A DNA stretch of 13,184 bases. Origin: a bacterium. Its GTDB lineage: Bacteria > Fidelibacterota > Marinisomatia > Marinisomatales > UBA1611. Below are positions 4,409 to 13,184 of this stretch, piece after piece. Made by a program: the position numbers and the translations under genes. The notes beneath the pieces are model-generated. The model ran no database searches and had not been told where the DNA came from. It saw nothing but the letters and a program-made list of their open reading frames with translations. The stretch's first letter is position 1; every line of letters starts with the position of its first letter. The DNA lies in contig JAYPIC010000037.1 in the NCBI GenBank assembly GCA_038127595.1, positions 3,059-16,242 of the forward strand. The letters run 5' to 3'.

Positions 4409-5350
4409 TTGAACTTAATTTTAGATCTTGTTTTAGTTTCGTTATCAATCCTAATGCTTTGGAAAGGCGCAGATTGGTTAGTTGATGCCGCATCTGAGAT
4501 TGCTCATTCACTGAAAATATCAGATCTTGTTATAGGACTTACTGTAGTGGCATTTGGAACATCAGCACCTGAATTTGCAGTAACAATTCGTGCTGCTATA
4601 ACTGGCCAGACAGATATCTCAATCGGGAACGTCGTTGGGTCTAATATTTTCAACCTAGGTTTCATTCTAGGCGGAACAGCAATGGTTAGGGCGATCAACA
4701 TAACTCCAAAACTTCTCTACAGAGATGGTATCTTTCTTCTAATTGTAACCATATTGATCTACATCCTATTTTTTGGATTTAATGGCTGGGATGCTGCGGA
4801 TGCAATCAATGCTTATGAAGGGTCAATATTATTTTTGGCTTTAATTGGATACATTATATTTTTGTTTATTAAAAAAGAACCAATTGAAGAAACCCACCCA
4901 AAATCTGCAGACCTACAATCTTACATATGGTTTTTTGTGGGTCTTTTCTCTATTGTATTAGGCGGGCATTTAATGGTTGAGCACGCGTCAAACCTAGCTC
5001 GTGCCTTTGGCGTCTCAGATTGGGTTATAGCAGTCACAATAGTTGCTGCAGGAACTTCAGCGCCTGAGCTAGCGACATCATTGACAGCAGCATTTAAAGA
5101 AAAACATGGAATGGCAATTGGGAATTTACTTGGCAGTGATTTATTTAATCTTCTTGGAGTACTTGGTTTAGCAGGTATAATTAACCCAACTAATATCCAA
5201 TCTGACATTCATTCAAGTATAGTTGTGCTAATCATAATGGTTTCTATGGTACTTGTTATGATGAGAACAGGTTGGCAAATAACTAGACTGCAAGGGACTA
5301 TTCTTGTAACACTAAATTTAATTAGGTGGTATCTAGACTTTGCAGGCTAG
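4409..5350 (+). CDS. Calcium/sodium antiporter, CaCA superfamily (YrbG-like)
   Basis: About 10 TM helices in two repeats; alpha-repeat motifs GTSAPE...GNVVGSNIFN and GTSAPE...GNLLGSDLFN. TTG start preceded by AAGG. Confidence 0.93.
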   Translation: MNLILDLVLVSLSILMLWKGADWLVDAASEIAHSLKISDLVIGLTVVAFGTSAPEFAVTIRAAITGQTDISIGNVVGSNIFNLGFILGGTAMVRAINITPKLLYRDGIFLLIVTILIYILFFGFNGWDAADAINAYEGSILFLALIGYIIFLFIKKEPIEETHPKSADLQSYIWFFVGLFSIVLGGHLMVEHASNLARAFGVSDWVIAVTIVAAGTSAPELATSLTAAFKEKHGMAIGNLLGSDLFNLLGVLGLAGIINPTNIQSDIHSSIVVLIIMVSMVLVMMRTGWQITRLQGTILVTLNLIRWYLDFAG

Positions 5351-5354
5351 GTAA

Positions 5355-5948
5355 TTACGAGTCATTTGATACACTATATAGATTGTTCTTATTTATATAT
5401 TCCCATATTGGCAATGTTACCATATACCTTATTGTAAGATCTTCTACCCACCTTGATCTTATTTTTGAAGAAGAAAGTTCAAACCTTGGAATATTTGCAA
5501 AGTGAACATCTTGCAATATCCAATGAGGTATATCTGAAGGCCTAAAACCTGGTCTTATTGCTACAATTACCTTAGCCTCATCTAATATCTTTTTTGGTTC
5601 TTTCCAATTTTTTAAGTCGATCAAACTATCGCTTCCAATTAGATAGTAGACTTCTTGCTTTTTAAGATTCAATTTGTTTTTTATATCAATTATAGAGTCA
5701 ATAGTGTATGAGGTGCCCTTTCTAACTATATCAACATTTGAGTATTCAAATTTAGGGTTATCTTCAATAGCGATCTTTATCATATTAATTCTATGATCTG
5801 CACTAGTTATACCGTTTTTATGAGGGGGTGAAAATGCAGGAATGAAGAGGACCTTATCAAAATTCTCTGCCTCACATACCGTCTGCGCTATTAGAAGATG
5901 ACCAATATGAGGAGGATCAAAGGTTCCTCCAAATAGACATACTTTCAT
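5355..5948 (-). CDS. nadD: Nicotinate-nucleotide adenylyltransferase
   Basis: GGTFDPPHIGH (HxGH), PPHK, SYTIDS, LIGSD, W in LKNWKE, SSSKIR, and C-terminal YINKNNLY. Confidence 0.96.
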   Translation of the reverse strand: MKVCLFGGTFDPPHIGHLLIAQTVCEAENFDKVLFIPAFSPPHKNGITSADHRINMIKIAIEDNPKFEYSNVDIVRKGTSYTIDSIIDIKNKLNLKKQEVYYLIGSDSLIDLKNWKEPKKILDEAKVIVAIRPGFRPSDIPHWILQDVHFANIPRFELSSSKIRSRWVEDLTIRYMVTLPIWEYINKNNLYSVSNDS

Positions 5949-6685
5949 TATAATTCTTTTTGGGAAAAAACTTCGGTTAATTCAAGCACTAGTTTCTCCT
6001 GCTTTATGGAGTCTCTTCCTTTATCTATCCAATGACTTCTGGCTTTTTTGTCGTTACCTTGTTTCAAGTAAGATTTAATAACCTCATAATGTACATTCTC
6101 AATTATATCAGTATCATAGTAAAGGTCAAGAACCTGGTTAAATGACATTCTAGCTGGCTCAAACTCATCCATCTTCATGTAAAGAATCCCAGTTTCATAT
6201 AATTTTTTTGCGAGTTTGTTTCTTAGAACGCTCATTGATTCTGAAACTGTTCTACTATGCTCGGACTCAGGGAAATCATCAAGGAATTCCCGATACCTTT
6301 CTAGTGCTTTCTCTGTGTATGACTGGTCGTTATAATAATTTGGGCTCTCTATTCTGTACGCCTCACAAATACGAAAACGTGCTTTTTCAAAAAAAGGACT
6401 AAAAGCCATTTTTCTAGTTAAGTTTTCATATTCTTGAATTGAGAGCATGTACTGCTCATTAAGAAAGTAAGCTTCAGCTAGAAAAAATTGTGCATCATCT
6501 CCATAATCTGTTCCTGTACCCCTCGATAAAATAAATTTGAATTCGTCTTGAGCTTTTACAAACTTGCCCTGATCCAAAAAATCCATTCCTATTTTTAAAT
6601 GATCAGCTAGAGGTAAACTCTCATCAGGCAAGGAAGACGAACATCCTATAAAAAATAATAAAAAGGTTATATATATGTATTTCAT
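5948..6685 (-). CDS. bamD: Outer membrane protein assembly lipoprotein BamD (YfiO/ComL)
   Basis: Lipoprotein signal ending FIG-C15; TPR helices (AQFFLAEAYF, YYNDQSYTEKAL, FLDDFPES, LRNKLAKKLYETGILY) with the FCB-type BamD pattern; 245 aa. TAATG overlap with nadD. Confidence 0.88.
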   Translation of the reverse strand: MKYIYITFLLFFIGCSSSLPDESLPLADHLKIGMDFLDQGKFVKAQDEFKFILSRGTGTDYGDDAQFFLAEAYFLNEQYMLSIQEYENLTRKMAFSPFFEKARFRICEAYRIESPNYYNDQSYTEKALERYREFLDDFPESEHSRTVSESMSVLRNKLAKKLYETGILYMKMDEFEPARMSFNQVLDLYYDTDIIENVHYEVIKSYLKQGNDKKARSHWIDKGRDSIKQEKLVLELTEVFSQKEL

Positions 6686-7576
6686 TTAAAAGTTTAATCT
6701 AAAAGATAAACCACCAATACCATGTGTATTATTTGGATCAAATAATAAACCCAAATCTAAATCTACCTTTTTAGCCTTATCTCCATTTTCTTCATTTTTA
6801 ACATTTCGGTTAGCCCAAACTGCTTCTAAACCACTGATTACATGATTAAACATCATTGCACTGATGCTAAATTTAGCAAAAGAAAGCCATTGGTTTGCTT
6901 CATAACGATCATCAAGGTAACTTTGTTTCCTTGGAGTTTTTATAACTATCTCAGTACTATCACCTACATCTTTTTCTTCCCAATACCAATTTGTTGAAAC
7001 ATCTGACCATCCCCCAACAAATTGATCATACTTACCAATGTTCTCATAGTAATGTCTATCTTTAACCATACTAAGATCTTCACTATCCAAATAGCTTGAT
7101 AGGATTGAGAGGCTATCAGAAGTAATGAACTCAGTATTAAATAAATTTACTAAATCACCTTTAAGGTGAATTGTTAAGTGATGAGTCCCAATATAGTTTC
7201 TCATAGCTTTTAATTTATTGTCAGTGAAAAACAAGCCATTATTTTCAATAACTTCTGGACCTGATTGAGTAAAATCCCACCAGTCTTTTACATTCCAATT
7301 TTCATCAGCAAACTTTTGGTAATTCATTCTGATTTCATCAGCTTTTTTGTTTGAATATATGATACTAGTTATACTAACTATCTCCGTCGCAATAAAAATT
7401 CCTGGTTTCCAAAGCGGCTCTTTATTGTACAGTTGACCAAGGCCTGGCACGATCAAAGACATAATCAAAGGTTTTCCTGGATAAAAAGTAGAATCTTTTT
7501 CTAAAGCCGCCTTTGTTGAATCTTGACCGAACAAAGGAATAGTAAAAAGAAAAGATAAAATTAACCTAGAAATCAA
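6686..7576 (-). CDS. Exported hypothetical protein with DUF5683-like motif and C-terminal beta-signal
   Basis: SLIVPGLGQLYNKEPLWK resembles DUF5683; ends GGLSFRLNF. TTG at 7576 gives a clean signal peptide (MISRLILSFLFTIPLFG|Q) and an 11-nt overlap with the upstream gene; the track's ATG at 7612 is the alternative start. Stop abuts the bamD ATG. Confidence 0.75.
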   Translation of the reverse strand: MISRLILSFLFTIPLFGQDSTKAALEKDSTFYPGKPLIMSLIVPGLGQLYNKEPLWKPGIFIATEIVSITSIIYSNKKADEIRMNYQKFADENWNVKDWWDFTQSGPEVIENNGLFFTDNKLKAMRNYIGTHHLTIHLKGDLVNLFNTEFITSDSLSILSSYLDSEDLSMVKDRHYYENIGKYDQFVGGWSDVSTNWYWEEKDVGDSTEIVIKTPRKQSYLDDRYEANQWLSFAKFSISAMMFNHVISGLEAVWANRNVKNEENGDKAKKVDLDLGLLFDPNNTHGIGGLSFRLNF

Positions 7577-10517
7577 ATAATATTTTGAAGTATGTCCTGT
7601 ATTCATCACCATATGAATATGATTCTCCTTTAATTGTTCTATTGAATTTAGTTAATCCTTTGTGAATCTCTAACTCAATTGCAGTTGGATAATTATAAAA
7701 GGAAAAACCATTGACTCTCCACTGAAGACCAATAGATTTTTTCCACATTTGGTCTTCTTTTTCACGCCAGGCATCTCCAAATTGAAAGATTGCTCCCAAA
7801 ACGCTATTTTGCATTATAAACCATCCTATTTTTACGTGCTTCTCCCTCATTAGAGGATAACGAACAGAAAAATCAATCAATGCTGTTCTAGTACCTTCAA
7901 TTCCATAAAATGGGTACCCTTTCAGCCCACTCATACCCCCATTAAAAAAATGAAAAAATGAATCAACCTTTGTATTTGTTATATACCCACCATTTAAGTG
8001 TAAGCTCGTTGTCAACCTTTCAACCCAAGGAAGCTCATAGTGGTAGGTAAAATCGCCTTGAAATCTTGCTAAATTATTATCTTTAAAATTTTCTACTAAA
8101 GTACCAGCATCTGAAAGGTCGAGACCATCAATAAATTTATTTTTCTCTAGATCAATTTTTGCAGATACTTTAAATCCATTAGATGGATTAATATTGCCAT
8201 CTAAACGCGGTTTAATAACGTTTAGTTTCCAGTCTAGATTTATTGATACTCCATTATAATAATCATAAGCTACACCAGCTTCAAGACCTTCTGTGGGAAG
8301 TGACTCACTAACAAACGCCCTATATCTTTGAAATGAACTATATAGCTCTATACTACTACCATAAAAAGGAAATCTTATTCCTGGACGAAACAGCAACATT
8401 CTAAATTTTATGTCACTATCAATCTGATAAATGTCTTGATATTGAGTTTTATCTGAAGTGTTTCTAGTTAGATAAAAAGTCTCAAAGAACAGTGTTGGGT
8501 AAAAACGATTAAATTCAAAAATAAAGAAAAGATCAGTATCCATAAGGCTGTTTAGCGACATACCACCAAATAAACTTAGCCGCTCTATGATTTCACTAGA
8601 ATAAAAATAAAATCCAGGCTTTACTGTACCATATTCTGCCATAACCTTGGGCATAATGAACATATTTGGAAATTGATCAACATATTTATGAGCCTTTGTT
8701 GTATCAGGCATTAGGATAGGATCGGATAGGTTTTCATTCTTTTGATAGTGAGTTTTTGAATATCCTACTAGCGTCTCATCGATCAATTGTAATGAATCTA
8801 TAATCGCTATTTTATAGCCTCCATTATCATATAATGAGTAAAGTACTTTGCCACTCTTATTTATATTTGGCATAAAAGCACCGCCAAATACATTTGTTGC
8901 ATACCCCTGATTTTCATTTTTATCGTCTACAAGATACAGATTGAAAATGCCACTTCTATCATCAGAGTAAATAAGAGAGCCATTTTCAGCAAACGCAATA
9001 TTACGTTCATCCCATAGATTATTATTTAAAACCATACTAATTGTGGAATCTTGAAGGGAAATTTTTGCTATATCGCGGTAATGGTTGGTAGATATATCAA
9101 AATAGAGACAATTATCAAACTCATTGAATTTTAAACTACTGAGCATCGGTCTTTCATCTAAATCTGTTATCTTATCAATTCTATCGCGTTTTAGATCATA
9201 CATATATACATCTTGAGCTCCATCATAAGTGGCAAGAAATGCTATACTACTATCAGTTTTAATGTAAGCAGGTGAAAATGACCTGGCTCCATAAGTAAGC
9301 CTATTTTCTTTTTTTAAATTTAAATCGTATTCATATAGGTCATAGTACCTAGAACCATTCTTATCAGGAAACTTTGGCTTTTTACTATAATAAATTATGT
9401 TACCATCTGGATGCCAAGTTGGCGCAGAATAAACGGCGCCTGAGACCTTCTTTTCTAAGCTGCTATCAAGATCATAGACATACAGGTCTGTCTGCCCAAA
9501 ATAATCATTATTTTTATTACTCAAATAGGCAAATACATTACTATCAGGTGCCCAAATTGGAAACATATTTGTAGTACCACTATCTATAATTATATTAGGC
9601 TTTACATGATTTATATCAATTGGATTAGTAAGCTTTTCATACCTCAACTTAAGTGTGGTGATAAACTCGTCATACACCTGCTCCCCATCAATATCTATAA
9701 CATTATAAAACGCATCATTAATTGAAAACTGAAACGGGTTTGATAACTCTACCATAAGATCCTTTATAATACCAGATCCATATTTGTATGCAATATATCT
9801 AGATAGTGCAAAGCCGGAATTATAGGTTGATTCGTTCCCGATACCTTTTTTACCAAATGTGTTCATTTCATTAAACGAAAGAAGATTATCATTAATTGCT
9901 CTATCTCTTAATATCATATCTCTGTGAGTATCCCAATGATCCCAGTCTGCATTATCGTACATGTACTGAGCTATACCTTCAGCAAGCCAGGGAGGGACAA
10001 CTGTTCCAGGTATTGGATAACTCACTAAAGAATTTGGAAATCCATACAATACATCTTTCCTTTTTTCTTCTTCATACCCCATATACTGAATATATGCTCC
10101 TGGAATCCTATTCCCCATCTTCATTGATTTTTGGAGAGAGACAATATGAGCATATTCATGTGTAATTACATTTTGTAACCACCTGTGACTACCTCTCAAC
10201 TCAAAATTAAGAGGGGTTGCCCATATAACAATTTTATTATCGTAATAATACGCTGCTCCGTTAGAATAATCATCAGCATCTTTCAATATTATATCCGTTT
10301 TATCTTCGGGTACAAAGTCATAAAACTGAGTTATTTTAGGAAAAATTGTCTCAGCTACCGTTGCAGCTTCTCTTGCAGATCTTTCCGTTCCATTATGATA
10401 ATGAATGTTGAAATGTTCAGTTTCAAAAGTAAACCATTCTAACTCTGGATGATTATACTTTGCTTGCCCGGATAACGAGGCATATACAGAAATTATTACA
10501 ATGAGCAAACGAATCAT
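7566..10517 (-). CDS. Zn-peptidase (MA clan/gluzincin-like) + TolB/PD40 beta-propeller + Omp85-like beta-barrel fusion
   Basis: Signal peptide; HEYAH (10146-10160) with downstream PPWLAEGIAQY; PD40-like repeats (PIWAPDS, PTWHPDG, DDRSGIFNLY); amphipathic C-terminal strands with GGMSGLKGY and FQFGDAW; terminal Phe (YFKILFDF). Confidence 0.82.
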   Translation of the reverse strand: MIRLLIVIISVYASLSGQAKYNHPELEWFTFETEHFNIHYHNGTERSAREAATVAETIFPKITQFYDFVPEDKTDIILKDADDYSNGAAYYYDNKIVIWATPLNFELRGSHRWLQNVITHEYAHIVSLQKSMKMGNRIPGAYIQYMGYEEEKRKDVLYGFPNSLVSYPIPGTVVPPWLAEGIAQYMYDNADWDHWDTHRDMILRDRAINDNLLSFNEMNTFGKKGIGNESTYNSGFALSRYIAYKYGSGIIKDLMVELSNPFQFSINDAFYNVIDIDGEQVYDEFITTLKLRYEKLTNPIDINHVKPNIIIDSGTTNMFPIWAPDSNVFAYLSNKNNDYFGQTDLYVYDLDSSLEKKVSGAVYSAPTWHPDGNIIYYSKKPKFPDKNGSRYYDLYEYDLNLKKENRLTYGARSFSPAYIKTDSSIAFLATYDGAQDVYMYDLKRDRIDKITDLDERPMLSSLKFNEFDNCLYFDISTNHYRDIAKISLQDSTISMVLNNNLWDERNIAFAENGSLIYSDDRSGIFNLYLVDDKNENQGYATNVFGGAFMPNINKSGKVLYSLYDNGGYKIAIIDSLQLIDETLVGYSKTHYQKNENLSDPILMPDTTKAHKYVDQFPNMFIMPKVMAEYGTVKPGFYFYSSEIIERLSLFGGMSLNSLMDTDLFFIFEFNRFYPTLFFETFYLTRNTSDKTQYQDIYQIDSDIKFRMLLFRPGIRFPFYGSSIELYSSFQRYRAFVSESLPTEGLEAGVAYDYYNGVSINLDWKLNVIKPRLDGNINPSNGFKVSAKIDLEKNKFIDGLDLSDAGTLVENFKDNNLARFQGDFTYHYELPWVERLTTSLHLNGGYITNTKVDSFFHFFNGGMSGLKGYPFYGIEGTRTALIDFSVRYPLMREKHVKIGWFIMQNSVLGAIFQFGDAWREKEDQMWKKSIGLQWRVNGFSFYNYPTAIELEIHKGLTKFNRTIKGESYSYGDEYRTYFKILFDF

Positions 10518-13184
10518 TTAATAACAGCAATTTTAATAAGCTTTTTGTTTGCATTGTCTAATGCAGGATTAGAAGATTTTGCCTCTATTTTACCAAAATA
10601 AATGCCAGCCTCTAGGCCTTCAATCATAAAATCCCACTCTGATATTTGAAATCCATTTGATGTAACACTCTTTTCAAACTTTTTTATGAAAGAACCTATT
10701 GAATCATAAATGTTCACCGTAATATGATTTGCATCAAAGGTCTCTACTCTAATCTTTGTCGATAGTAATTGCCTTACTGGATTTGGATAGCAATAAGATC
10801 TAATGATAAGATCATTACTATTTAGTGTTGATGTATAAGGGATATCAACCTTTCTTGAATTGGTAAGCGATCCGTTTGCAGTAGTCCAACTATTACCATT
10901 ATTACTATCTTGTTTATCAAATTCAATAACACTGTGTTTTGTGAAAATATAATTTTTCTGATTCATGTTATGTATAAATACCAGATCATCATTTTTGGAC
11001 ATTGAATAGGAAAACAATAAATGACCTTTATTATCGTAAATATATAGTTTACTTGAGTCTTGCGACTTCACGATGATCTCAGGGCTCTCAGAGCCAATGA
11101 TATCTTTAGAAAGAGCTATACCTGAAACCTTATTATCCAGAGGAAAGCCAGATAAAATATGCAAATCACTATCATAGGCTGTAATTACACCATTTTCATC
11201 AATTAAAATTGGGTTTACTATAGCATCCATTGTTAAATCAATACCAATTAAGGATGATGGAGCTTCAGTATATAGAACAGTACTATCGCTTGCTATTAGG
11301 TCTCTTGAAATTAGCTTGTTATTATTTTTATCAATTTCATAAATATTTCTATCTGAAAAAACTTTGTCTTTATGAGAGTTTGTCTCAAATAGATCTAAAA
11401 ATGAAACTTGCGAGAAATTCTCGTTATAGATAGGAAATATGATAGAATCAATAATTGCTGAGGAATAAAACTCAATTATACTAAAATCAGCACTGAATTT
11501 ATATTCTGTAAGGTTTACACTTTCAGCTGCATTCTCATAAATCTGAAGAAGTAAACCATTTGAATTTTCTAGTATTCCTAATTCAATATGCTCCTTGCCA
11601 TCAAGGTAAGAATTTAAATGATGAAATTTAGTCTTTTTATATTCATGGATGTCACTCATAAACCATAAAGAGTCTCTTCCTCCAAAGATAATAGCATTAT
11701 CAAAGTCTTGTGGTGAATAAGCTAGCCTATAATTTGCAGTTGAATCATTAAAACCATATGGCATCATATCATTCAAAATTGATACCGACATTGTATCTGA
11801 TGCGGAACTTATATGTTCAAATGAAAGATTGCTACTTGAGCCATCATTGGAATTAGTATTAGGATATGTAGCAGGAGTAAATGAGGGCAATTCTCCTTCA
11901 TTTTGAGAGTTAGCTCTATAGTATTCTCTGTTTTCTGCAAACCACATATCACCAAAATACCCAGAAGAGGGGTCATCAAACATAAAAAATGAATCAAATC
12001 CAATATCCTGAGCACCGTCAGACTCTTCAAGATCCACACCCATATGATTAATATTTTCATTGATCTTATATGACGACATACCTTGATCTATTTTTCGATT
12101 ATCAATATGCCATATAAGAAGCCCTGAGCCAGGTAATCCTAAATCGTAATTTTGAAACTTTGTAATAACACCATTGTCATCAGTAGACATTGGTATTGAG
12201 TCTATAATAGTTTTAATGAAAGATGGATATTCATCTGTTTCTTTATATATCTTATATCTTAATGAATCTATACTGACACCAGTTTTGTAATGATTATTCC
12301 GGTTTTCAACCAGAAAATATTCAAACTCATTAATATCCACTTTTAAAATATTATTTTTACTTCTTTTCGGCAATGTAACCTGCGAATTTGATGATATTTG
12401 AGCTGGATGGTCCCACCCCGCATAGATTCTAGACCAGGGGTCTGGCGGTGAAGGAATCAGTCCCCGACCGTTATTAGATCCTTGATCCATTAAGCCAAAA
12501 ACACCTATTCTACTTTTCCCATTATCAATATCCCACATTGGCGGAAGTCCAACTGCAAAACCGATCATTAAGGACAGAGTTCCATTTAAACCAAATTGGT
12601 AATCGCATGGATCTGGTTCTCCAGCAAACATAGTATTAGATATATCAAAATTTAAATGATTTTGAGATTCTGGAAGTATCACTCCTTTTGCAATAGTAGC
12701 ATCACCAATTGTAATACTATTAGAGCCAATAGATTCATATATCATATCAGTATCTATGTATGTTGAAGGTATGTCTTCAGGAGTTGGGTCAAGAAAAGGC
12801 AATGAAAAATCCTGACCTATCCCAGCGTGAAAAACAATGATCAAATCGTAATCAGAAAAATTAACTTCATCTCGGTCATAAGCAGCCTCTAAAGAATGAA
12901 TATAAAGCTCTGTAAGCCTCTTATCAGCGATACTATCTTGTCCATATGGATAATAGTGAGACATTTCATATGGTAACTCATAGGGGGAATTATCAATGGG
13001 CATAATGATACTGGAGATTGTGTCAATACCAAATTCATCATAAGAAACAGATCTGAAATAGCTATCAGTAGCTTTTAATTGAGAATAAAAATATGCACCA
13101 TCATGGGGAGGCGGATCGATGTGGTATGGTTCACAATCAATACCCTTAATGGTGTTAAGAAATTTTCCATTTCCTGTCGTGCTC
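10514..13184 (-). CDS. Partial CDS: M6/immune-inhibitor-A-like protein lacking HExxH, with FG-GAP-like repeats and T9SS type A C-terminal sorting domain
   Basis: Frame stays open upstream of the track's Met (13003) to the window edge: STTGNGKFLNTIKGIDCEPYHIDPPPHDGAYFYSQLKATDSYFRSVS. M6-type motifs: IIVFHAGIG, FGLMDQGS, PWSRIYAGW, EYFLVENR, GLLIWHID, VDLEESDG. CTD motifs: YPNP, IYDSIG, AGIYF, KIAVIK. Confidence 0.82.
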   Translation of the reverse strand, partial: STTGNGKFLNTIKGIDCEPYHIDPPPHDGAYFYSQLKATDSYFRSVSYDEFGIDTISSIIMPIDNSPYELPYEMSHYYPYGQDSIADKRLTELYIHSLEAAYDRDEVNFSDYDLIIVFHAGIGQDFSLPFLDPTPEDIPSTYIDTDMIYESIGSNSITIGDATIAKGVILPESQNHLNFDISNTMFAGEPDPCDYQFGLNGTLSLMIGFAVGLPPMWDIDNGKSRIGVFGLMDQGSNNGRGLIPSPPDPWSRIYAGWDHPAQISSNSQVTLPKRSKNNILKVDINEFEYFLVENRNNHYKTGVSIDSLRYKIYKETDEYPSFIKTIIDSIPMSTDDNGVITKFQNYDLGLPGSGLLIWHIDNRKIDQGMSSYKINENINHMGVDLEESDGAQDIGFDSFFMFDDPSSGYFGDMWFAENREYYRANSQNEGELPSFTPATYPNTNSNDGSSSNLSFEHISSASDTMSVSILNDMMPYGFNDSTANYRLAYSPQDFDNAIIFGGRDSLWFMSDIHEYKKTKFHHLNSYLDGKEHIELGILENSNGLLLQIYENAAESVNLTEYKFSADFSIIEFYSSAIIDSIIFPIYNENFSQVSFLDLFETNSHKDKVFSDRNIYEIDKNNNKLISRDLIASDSTVLYTEAPSSLIGIDLTMDAIVNPILIDENGVITAYDSDLHILSGFPLDNKVSGIALSKDIIGSESPEIIVKSQDSSKLYIYDNKGHLLFSYSMSKNDDLVFIHNMNQKNYIFTKHSVIEFDKQDSNNGNSWTTANGSLTNSRKVDIPYTSTLNSNDLIIRSYCYPNPVRQLLSTKIRVETFDANHITVNIYDSIGSFIKKFEKSVTSNGFQISEWDFMIEGLEAGIYFGKIEAKSSNPALDNANKKLIKIAVIK

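Follow-up and report, generated by a model that had tools for sequence, protein, structure and literature searches.

The window, the whole stretch of 13,184 nucleotides that we analysed, holds a run of minus-strand genes headed by M6i, an M6-like pseudoprotease (10514 to 13184) whose 5' end is open where window and contig C37 both end, and which is about 43 amino acids short of a 92%-identical gene in genome G003. It is followed by an Omp85 protein of 983 amino acids (7566 to 10517), a DUF5683 protein (6686 to 7612 from its ATG, with an alternative TTG start at 7576), bamD (5948 to 6685) and nadD (5355 to 5948; NF000840 above cut-off), all on the minus strand; the first three are the core members of what we call the trio. 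The initial annotation had described the first four as envelope genes with tight junctions, and both the genes and the junctions proved real when the reading frames were re-read from the sequence: M6i and the Omp85 gene share a 4-nt ATGA overlap, the Omp85 and DUF5683 genes overlap by 47 nt from the ATG at 7612 or by 11 nt if the TTG at 7576 is taken as the start, and DUF5683 meets bamD at a 0-nt junction. In addition, bamD overlaps nadD by 1 nt, which had gone unremarked, and the gene run thus extends into housekeeping genes. The reading of these junctions as a sign of coupling did not survive comparison with background, as computed from mechanical ORF calls of the Marinisomatota genome G000: gaps of 20 nt or less separate 61% of its 1279 co-directional ORF pairs, and all three gaps are that short in 247 of its 808 four-gene runs. 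Contigs from four metatranscriptome RNA runs cover 26 to 30 of 30 bins, a coverage that has no silent control and resolves neither strand nor a single transcript, and each junction is bridged in at least one of these runs, again with strand and transcript unity not resolvable. Promoter-like sites were not enriched (40 found against 46.7 expected), no terminators stood above chance, and the viral contigs searched gave no match.

M6i comprises an M6-like pseudoprotease domain (TIGR03296, E 7e-14), a poorly conserved middle, for which orthologue L155 gives an FG-GAP_3 match indicative of FG-GAP-like repeats, and a type A C-terminal domain (CTD) of the type IX secretion system (T9SS). Its zinc site is dead: at 12557 to 12571 (minus strand) LMIGF replaces HExxH and, next, GLPP replaces GLPD, in a register set by aligning orthologue L162 to PDB 4yu5, and an HExxH string was found in only 1 of 89 M6i orthologues and in none of the 150 top representatives. 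The CTD (10517 to 10789, minus strand) scores 30.3 bits against PF18962 (cut-off 27) and passes TIGR04183, and the best PDB match of the family profile is the CTD of PorU (E 8.6e-5). An inactive M6-like protein with a type A CTD, as initially described, is therefore what the window encodes.

Equally well founded was the description of the second protein as a POTRA-less Omp85 with an intact zinc-peptidase motif. Behind its signal peptide lie a gluzincin peptidase domain, a TolB-like propeller (PD40, 34.3 bits against a cut-off of 20.9) and a barrel of which 16 strands could be counted in an AlphaFold2 model (pLDDT 90.8, pTM 0.90), strands 5-9 being long; POTRA domains were found neither as Pfam matches nor as elements of this model. 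Structure comparison (VIA) returned TolB (Z 23.0), BamA 8xnb (Z 21.4, rmsd 4.4, 310 aligned), TamA (Z 19.6) and Sam50 (Z 19.5), the last three for the barrel; Foldseek matches include the propellers of tricorn and S9 proteins, and a PDB sequence search found TolB only. In loop 6 of the barrel (7575 to 8660, minus strand; residues 620-981) the motif reads LKGY, which varies on the VRGF/Y defined in PMC12611786, and the protein is absent from the TIGR03303 (BamA) matches. The peptidase motif (9978 to 10160, minus strand) consists of H120-E121-x-x-H124 (HEYAH) and E180 (WLAEG); although Peptidase_MA_2 stays below its cut-off here (E 2.7e-5), it exceeds it in several orthologues, and HExxH plus WxAEG is kept in 106 of 106 orthologues and in 89 of 89 of a second set. 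The peptidase is thus invariant in a module whose M6 site is dead throughout the family. Between HExxH and E180 the model places a clade-specific beta-hairpin insertion (residues ~140-170), which two paralogues in G000 lack in alignment; the protein is 17-21% identical to aligned paralogues and belongs to one clade.

The third protein is a DUF5683 protein of the YENIGKY type. Behind its signal peptide comes a long helical hairpin of moderate hydrophobicity (hydropathy in the family peaks at 1.0) that bears a globular tip, and the C-terminal end forms a beta-hairpin that closes on F or W, the last residue in 74 of 89 orthologues. It matches PF18935 at 37.1 bits (cut-off 26.7) over residues 45-114 only, with orthologue L155 below the cut-off. 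With its AlphaFold2 model (pLDDT 88.2), a fold search found no chain at Z 8 and only generic helical hairpins, a result that does not imply a new fold. An ESM Atlas search returned only clusters that were unnamed, TolB-named or DUF5683. The host, for its part, encodes T9SS proteins: in G000, SprA, which a run of N splits, is above its cut-off, PorU scores 570 bits against 420, and there are five passing PorV-family genes and 61 CTD matches (~60 CTD proteins).

Gene order, which the initial annotation had named as a check, is conserved across three phyla. In all 40 Marinisomatota loci examined it reads porV-M6i-Omp85-DUF5683-bamD-nadD (porV being off-contig in one), and porU-porV-M6i-Omp85-DUF5683 occurs in 17 of 20 Bacteroidota-wide 20-kb loci, some with genes inserted after M6i, and in all four loci of a third phylum, PorU and PorV in these other phyla having been identified by NF033707 and NF033710. 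The loci of relatives also supply what lies past the right edge: porV, the operon's first gene, falls beyond the end of contig C37 and so outside the window. The barrel upstream of M6i scores 84.8 bits against PF19572 (cut-off 27) and 185 against NF033710 (cut-off 250), which orthologue L155 passes at 272. Within Marinisomatota, nadD, ftsEX, grpE and dnaJ are often equally syntenic with the trio. BamD itself is unambiguous (TIGR03302, 102.9 bits against 81.4; lipobox FFIG-C15; TPR matches), is the sole TIGR03302-passing gene in G000, where a canonical, TIGR03303-passing BamA is encoded elsewhere, on contig C4, and adjoins the trio in none of the 35 loci outside Marinisomatota.

The three genes are also kept and lost together. 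Omp85 and M6i occur in the identical 66 of 151 Bacteroidota-wide genomes, the opposite of the independent profiles that would speak against a module, and YENIGKY-type DUF5683 occurs in all 66 and in two more, G203 and G246, which have neither M6i nor Omp85. This co-presence persists when the genes are unlinked: G170 has them at three separate loci, and the trio is partly unlinked yet complete in G248, G272, G284, G292, G167 and G151. Among 121 Marinisomatota genomes, the trio genes are present in 113, 113 and 108; all three are absent together in seven, and the single misses of the other seven genomes trace to contig ends (six) or to a sub-threshold match (one). Every carrier has one copy. Related genomes in these counts are not independent, and in a mutual-information analysis of 89 paired alignment rows the signal was chiefly phylogenetic and told nothing about coevolution. 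The losses are clean: porV abuts bamD in all six genomes of genus g26, and in G057 porV and the trio are both gone, while both lineages keep bamD and SprA, as well as BamA (tested in one of them). The trio is missing from the smallest genomes (~1 Mb). Eight module-less PorU loci fall in four separate places on a FastTree PorU tree, which suggests four further losses, bringing the count to at least six; some nodes of this tree are weakly supported (0.54-0.78), and it samples 8 of the 46 genomes that have PorU but no module.

Those 46 are among 109 PorU-positive Bacteroidota-wide genomes, and because they lack the trio, and g26 and G057 retain SprA without it, the trio is dispensable for secretion. 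Conversely, PorU is found in 63 of the 66 carriers; the contig of G158 begins at porV, and G234 and G258 have neither PorU nor PorZ yet keep porV and the trio, which rules out strict dependence on PorU. We also considered M6i as a substitute for PorZ and rejected it, since PorZ occurs alongside M6i in most carriers.

We conclude that M6i, the Omp85 protein and the DUF5683 protein very probably form a functional unit to which BamD does not belong; the earlier suggestion of a T9SS-linked module thus holds for these three, by gene order and joint profiles, and fails for BamD. Because they are kept and lost together in three phyla, usually beside T9SS genes, the trio is likely an undescribed outer-membrane machine. 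A putative physical complex of the three seems probable; a complex prediction on barrel residues 596-983, M6i 24-345 and DUF5683 40-305, with paired 89-row alignments and run without controls, scored 0.00 and speaks neither for nor against it. That the trio, inherited and lost as a unit beside porV/porU, is a T9SS-dependent outer-membrane complex that does not include BamD and serves as a proteolytic checkpoint, we hold to be about evenly balanced, and quality-control cleavage as its predicted task somewhat less assured than that. In such a machine, M6i would be exported through SprA by virtue of its CTD and stay on the surface on a PorV-type barrel with the CTD uncut, as are those of PorA, PorU and PorZ (PMC11285876). 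Its dead M6 cleft could bind polypeptide without cutting it and cap the Omp85 barrel on its outer side, and DUF5683 would be a partner embedded in the membrane, where its C-terminal hairpin could pair with the edge of the barrel. Gluzincin and propeller may hang in the periplasm like the N-terminal domains of other Omp85 proteins, a placement adopted from Omp85 convention, the membrane side having been left open for metalloprotease-Omp85s by Heinz & Lithgow (PMC4104836). There the gluzincin would cleave polypeptides that the barrel holds or lets pass, the likeliest substrates being stalled or spent T9SS or outer-membrane proteins, much as BepA, a zinc protease that works with an Omp85 machine and sets the precedent (PMC13067283), does for BAM.

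Other readings fit parts of these data. The trio might be a platform for assembly and display, in which the barrel would insert DUF5683 or hold it in place and anchor the secreted M6i as an extracellular canopy, much as BamG/BamH sit on the BamA of Bacteroidota, the peptidase making one maturation cut in its own partner; the retained Omp85 fold and loop-6 motif, the long strands 5-9 and the aromatic-terminated hairpin of DUF5683 agree with this, and barrel, transmembrane partner and surface canopy are combined elsewhere (PMC12611786, PMC12578637). We nevertheless think it unlikely: there is no POTRA to receive substrates, the genome already has a canonical BamA, and the use of a dead protease as canopy goes unexplained. 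Protein scavenging, with M6i binding environmental peptides, the barrel admitting them and a propeller-gated periplasmic peptidase digesting them, would suit the tricorn- and S9-like arrangement of propeller and peptidase and the loss of the trio from the smallest genomes, but a single copy at a fixed position behind porUV is more in keeping with machinery than with a nutrient locus, and with no TonB-dependent or peptide transporter seen as a constant neighbour we regard it as distinctly improbable. Placed no higher is the view that these envelope genes merely share regulation in one old operon, where each does a related but distinct job and no complex forms; that the operon also holds bamD and nadD and has junctions at background level speaks for it, whereas M6i and Omp85 share the same genomes even where unlinked, and the repeated joint losses spare flanking genes. 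Finally, the single non-canonical BAM-like complex of all four proteins that was first proposed is not supported and very improbable, since BamD, for all its 40 of 40 placements behind DUF5683 and its 0-nt junction in the window, is a housekeeping neighbour outside the trio: a lone copy that BamA needs, retained in all seven Marinisomatota genomes without the trio (six of g26 and G057), linked no more closely than nadD and facing a barrel that lacks POTRA5, on which BamD docks.

Returning to the proteolytic checkpoint, a broader version would make it an ancestral trans-outer-membrane protease machine of the FCB group, lost in model Bacteroidia, in which the surface pseudoprotease captures proteins and the barrel feeds them to the fused periplasmic zinc protease. 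This extension is speculative and, we judge, rather unlikely; if true, an Omp85 would be moving polypeptide inward for destruction, instead of assembling or exporting it. To our knowledge, all T9SS work has been done in model Bacteroidia, and the distribution of the trio suggests that the deep FCB T9SS carries an extra outer-membrane module invisible to studies of Flavobacterium and Porphyromonas.

The claim that no characterised system has such a composition stands in part: a literature search found no description of an M6i-Omp85-DUF5683 module, although the dead protease and the Omp85 architecture each have a record. NCBIfam NF052323, 'T9SS-dependent M6-like inactivated metalloprotease', combines an inactivated zinc site with a type A CTD as M6i does; its name gives no partner or function, and its cut-off of 600 bits is exceeded by syntenic orthologues in other phyla (655-909) and missed in Marinisomatota (342-542: 341.7 for the window fragment, 520 and 542 for two full-length orthologues). 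The PorQUVZ attachment complex likewise has CTD-bearing parts that remain at the cell surface together with PorV-family barrels, and the trio genes lie behind porU-porV; we know of no Omp85 barrel or zinc peptidase in that complex, and the trio survives the loss of PorU and PorZ. The Bacteroidota BAM (BamADGH; PMC12611786, PMC12578637) resembles the trio in joining an Omp85 barrel to a transmembrane and an extracellular partner, with a FadL-type barrel nearby. It is, however, built on an essential, POTRA-bearing BamA with BamD, whereas the trio is dispensable and its barrel is not co-inherited with BamD; its surface partners are lipoproteins and not T9SS cargo, and the word 'peptidase' has no occurrences in the main texts of the two papers. 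BepA (YfgC; PMC13067283) is, as the trio peptidase would be, a periplasmic zinc protease at an Omp85 barrel, but it is a separate M48 protease, whereas the trio has a clan-MA gluzincin fused to a second barrel of its own. Closest is the 'WD40-like' Omp85 architecture catalogued in 2014 by Heinz & Lithgow (PMC4104836), which shares with the window protein an Omp85 barrel and a TolB-like propeller instead of POTRA, and for which Table S3 of that survey lists barrel, WD40 and aminopeptidase structural matches; the window protein has its traits, namely a 16-strand barrel, a propeller without POTRA and an N-terminal gluzincin-like domain. The survey's entries on this subfamily give no function, partner or gene context, and peptidase-propeller Omp85s have been on record since then with no function given in the literature examined. 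The clade described here differs in its own hairpin insertion and its fixed partners: one clade of peptidase-propeller Omp85s now has a pair of obligate partners, a constant association with porUV and lineages that are natural knock-outs, and cultured Ignavibacteria, Balneolia or Calditrichota-type strains offer a way to test what such proteins do.

The initial annotation described four envelope genes, and all are seen in the sequence as minus-strand open reading frames with the junctions it reported: M6i (an M6-like pseudoprotease with a CTD, here short of about 43 N-terminal residues), a peptidase-propeller-Omp85 protein, a YENIGKY-type DUF5683 protein and bamD follow one another at -4, -47 (-11 if a TTG start is used) and 0 nt, and bamD runs into nadD by -1 nt. 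That such tight junctions point to coupling did not survive comparison with the host genome (G000; 2.0 Mb, 33% G+C): because gaps are all ≤20 nt in 247 of its 808 co-directional four-gene runs, packing here is at background level and uninformative. The window is the terminal part of contig C37, and close homologues bear the labels Marinimicrobia or Marinisomatota. Inside bamD, about 150 nt ahead of nadD, lies a sigma-70-like site (6102-6129, minus strand; 11/12 match, with TG), and such sites are overall no more numerous than chance. Downstream of dnaJ, positions 190-945 encode a conserved 251-aa protein with a hydrophobic N-terminal helix and no match in Pfam or NCBIfam. The Ca/Na antiporter gene at 4409-5350 is oriented opposite to that of most relatives, whose co-directional copy is just 28-48% identical to it, probably reflecting gene replacement inside its own family.

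The conserved order of the first three genes (the trio) was borne out both in Marinisomatota and in other phyla. Genes past the right edge were inspected through the close relative G003, whose proteins are 92-97% identical to the window's: a PorV-family gene, preceded by a 157-nt gap, heads the operon 11 nt upstream of M6i, and this porV is absent from the G000 assembly. All 40 Marinisomatota loci fetched have the order porV-M6i-Omp85-DUF5683-bamD-nadD; in one, porV falls outside the contig, and in one a run of N interrupts M6i. They were picked for long contigs, 20 from the 38 genomes matched in one search and 20 from the 113 matched in another. At L056:2544-5891 the PorV-family gene of the operon encodes 1115 aa where other loci have about 450, which points to a large insertion or a fusion. 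Order within Marinisomatota alone proves little, because ftsEX, grpE and dnaJ often hold their places just as firmly in these loci. Contigs labelled Ignavibacteria, Bacteroidota and KSB1 carry porU-porV-M6i-Omp85-DUF5683, in some with a gene inserted after M6i. Of 20 additional 20-kb loci, 17 show the same porU-porV-trio order, as do all four loci from a third phylum, in which the trio is followed by another DUF5683 gene. A 217-253-aa gene with an FlgD-Ig-like domain between M6i and the Omp85 gene (L155:8997-9650, L159:9213-9974, L207, L223) is a possible optional fourth member in several lineages.

BamD does not share this history. A BamD profile search of 35 trio loci outside Marinisomatota (four under 10 kb) gave no match, and bamD lay on contigs other than the trio's in all five genomes searched. 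The fourth gene passes the BamD cut-off and is the sole passing BamD of G000, with canonical BamA on contig C4. The proposed four-gene, T9SS-linked module thus stands in part: the trio is upheld by its order behind porV or porU-porV and by joint inheritance, and BamD is a local neighbour.

The phylogenetic profiles of M6i, Omp85 and DUF5683 are not independent. A search of 121 Marinisomatota genomes detected the Omp85 gene and M6i in 113 each and the DUF5683 type in 108; single misses in seven genomes, once inspected, were six contig ends and one sub-threshold match, and the whole trio is absent from seven. Six of these seven form one 1-Mb genus (96-99% complete) in which porV abuts bamD in 6/6, and G057 (95% complete) has lost porV along with the trio on a continuous contig. 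Bacteroidota-wide, 66 of 151 genomes carry the Omp85 gene and exactly these 66 carry M6i; DUF5683 matches with E below 1e-29 occur in all 66 and in two more genomes, weaker matches in G172 and G185 being excluded. Co-presence persists when the genes are unlinked, as at three separate loci in G170.

The trio requires a T9SS background, yet it is neither core T9SS nor bound to the sortase, as follows from the distribution of PorU and PorZ. Trio-less Marinisomatota retain SprA (5/5 tested) and BamA (4/4 tested), and a PorU search of all seven found none. PorU occurs in 109 of the 151 Bacteroidota-wide genomes, namely 63 of the 66 trio carriers and 46 trio-less genomes. Eight of the latter, placed on a PorU tree (FastTree with G000 as the root; weak support at some nodes), fall in four separate spots among carriers; we infer that the trio-less genomes with top PorU scores are Bacteroidia. 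G234 and G258 retain porV and the trio and lack PorU and PorZ, the latter elsewhere found together with M6i. In four genomes of the same class (G045, G056, G073, G130), PorU lies in frames of just 708-862 aa whose match to the profile begins at position 366-475, and three further genomes gave no match at 1e-60; all keep the trio, which suggests progressive decay of PorU in the lineage. G000 itself is T9SS-positive; its sprA (C83:1128-7125) is divided between a 423-aa and a ~1600-aa frame that meet at a run of N, suggesting a gap in the assembly, not a broken gene.

Against NF052323, whose cut-off is 600 bits, M6i scores 341.7. Its type A CTD exceeds the cut-off for that domain, and the top PDB match of the M6i family profile, a weak one, is the PorU CTD. 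LMIGF stands at its HExxH position, in a register set by an orthologue that retains HQFAH and aligns to PDB 4yu5. The HExxH string occurs in 1/89 orthologues and in none of the best 150 representatives. That orthologue (L162:2063-5023) retains both histidines in its HQFAH, and 5/115 parsed representatives also keep both, an intermediate stage in the decay of the active site.

The peptidase-Omp85 protein, in which HExxH and WxAEG are kept by 106/106 aligned sequences, is predicted with high confidence to combine a helical peptidase domain with a propeller and a barrel of 16 strands (pLDDT 90.8, pTM 0.90), the propeller matching TolB (Z 23.0) and the barrel BamA (Z 21.4), TamA (Z 19.6) and Sam50 (Z 19.5). 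Two G000 paralogues of this architecture (C15:28193-31366, L238; C8:9138-12050, L239), about 21% identical to the window protein, have intact HExxH and lack the hairpin insertion that follows it there. The C15 type is retained even by the 1-Mb genus without the trio (L083, L084) and may therefore be more essential than the others. In another trio-less genome (L235:15840-19115), a C15-type paralogue 2.5 kb from porU has SITEM in place of HExxH, a degenerate zinc motif that marks it as a putative pseudo-peptidase Omp85. Stand-alone genes partially matching the Omp85-protein profile (L232:2867-4915, 682 aa; L258:516-1499, 327 aa) immediately adjoin porU in two distant genomes.

The DUF5683 model (pLDDT 88.2) shows a long helical hairpin that carries a globular tip and is only moderately hydrophobic, with a beta-hairpin at the C-terminus, and the terminal residue is F or W in 74/89 orthologues. 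A list of P. gingivalis outer-membrane-vesicle proteins includes a DUF5683 protein (PMC13744359), weakly suggesting an outer-membrane location. YENIGKY-type genes also occur without M6i or the Omp85 gene (G203 C1:551292-551957; G246 C1:1900276-1900917).

We propose that M6i would be exported and then held on the cell surface with its CTD uncut, as described for PorA, PorU and PorZ (PMC11285876), where it would cap the Omp85 barrel and bind polypeptide; DUF5683 would be the barrel's membrane partner, and the gluzincin peptidase would cut in the periplasm. By analogy with BepA, a zinc protease that serves an Omp85 machine (PMC13067283), we favour a role in cleaving stalled or spent T9SS or outer-membrane proteins over a maturation and display platform, a peptide scavenging unit or mere co-regulation of the three genes.

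The WD40-like Omp85 subfamily was defined by Heinz & Lithgow, with aminopeptidase matches already in their Table S3 (PMC4104836), and the passage of a 2024 paper restating that description gives no function (PMC11358297). The initial annotation knew of no characterised system of such composition, and a full-text literature search, thin for subscription papers and mostly at listing level, likewise found none described. The trio is thus real, T9SS-linked and deeply conserved, an apparently undescribed combination of individually catalogued parts, and the Bacteroidota BAM is, from what two published papers set out in the parts consulted, a different machine.
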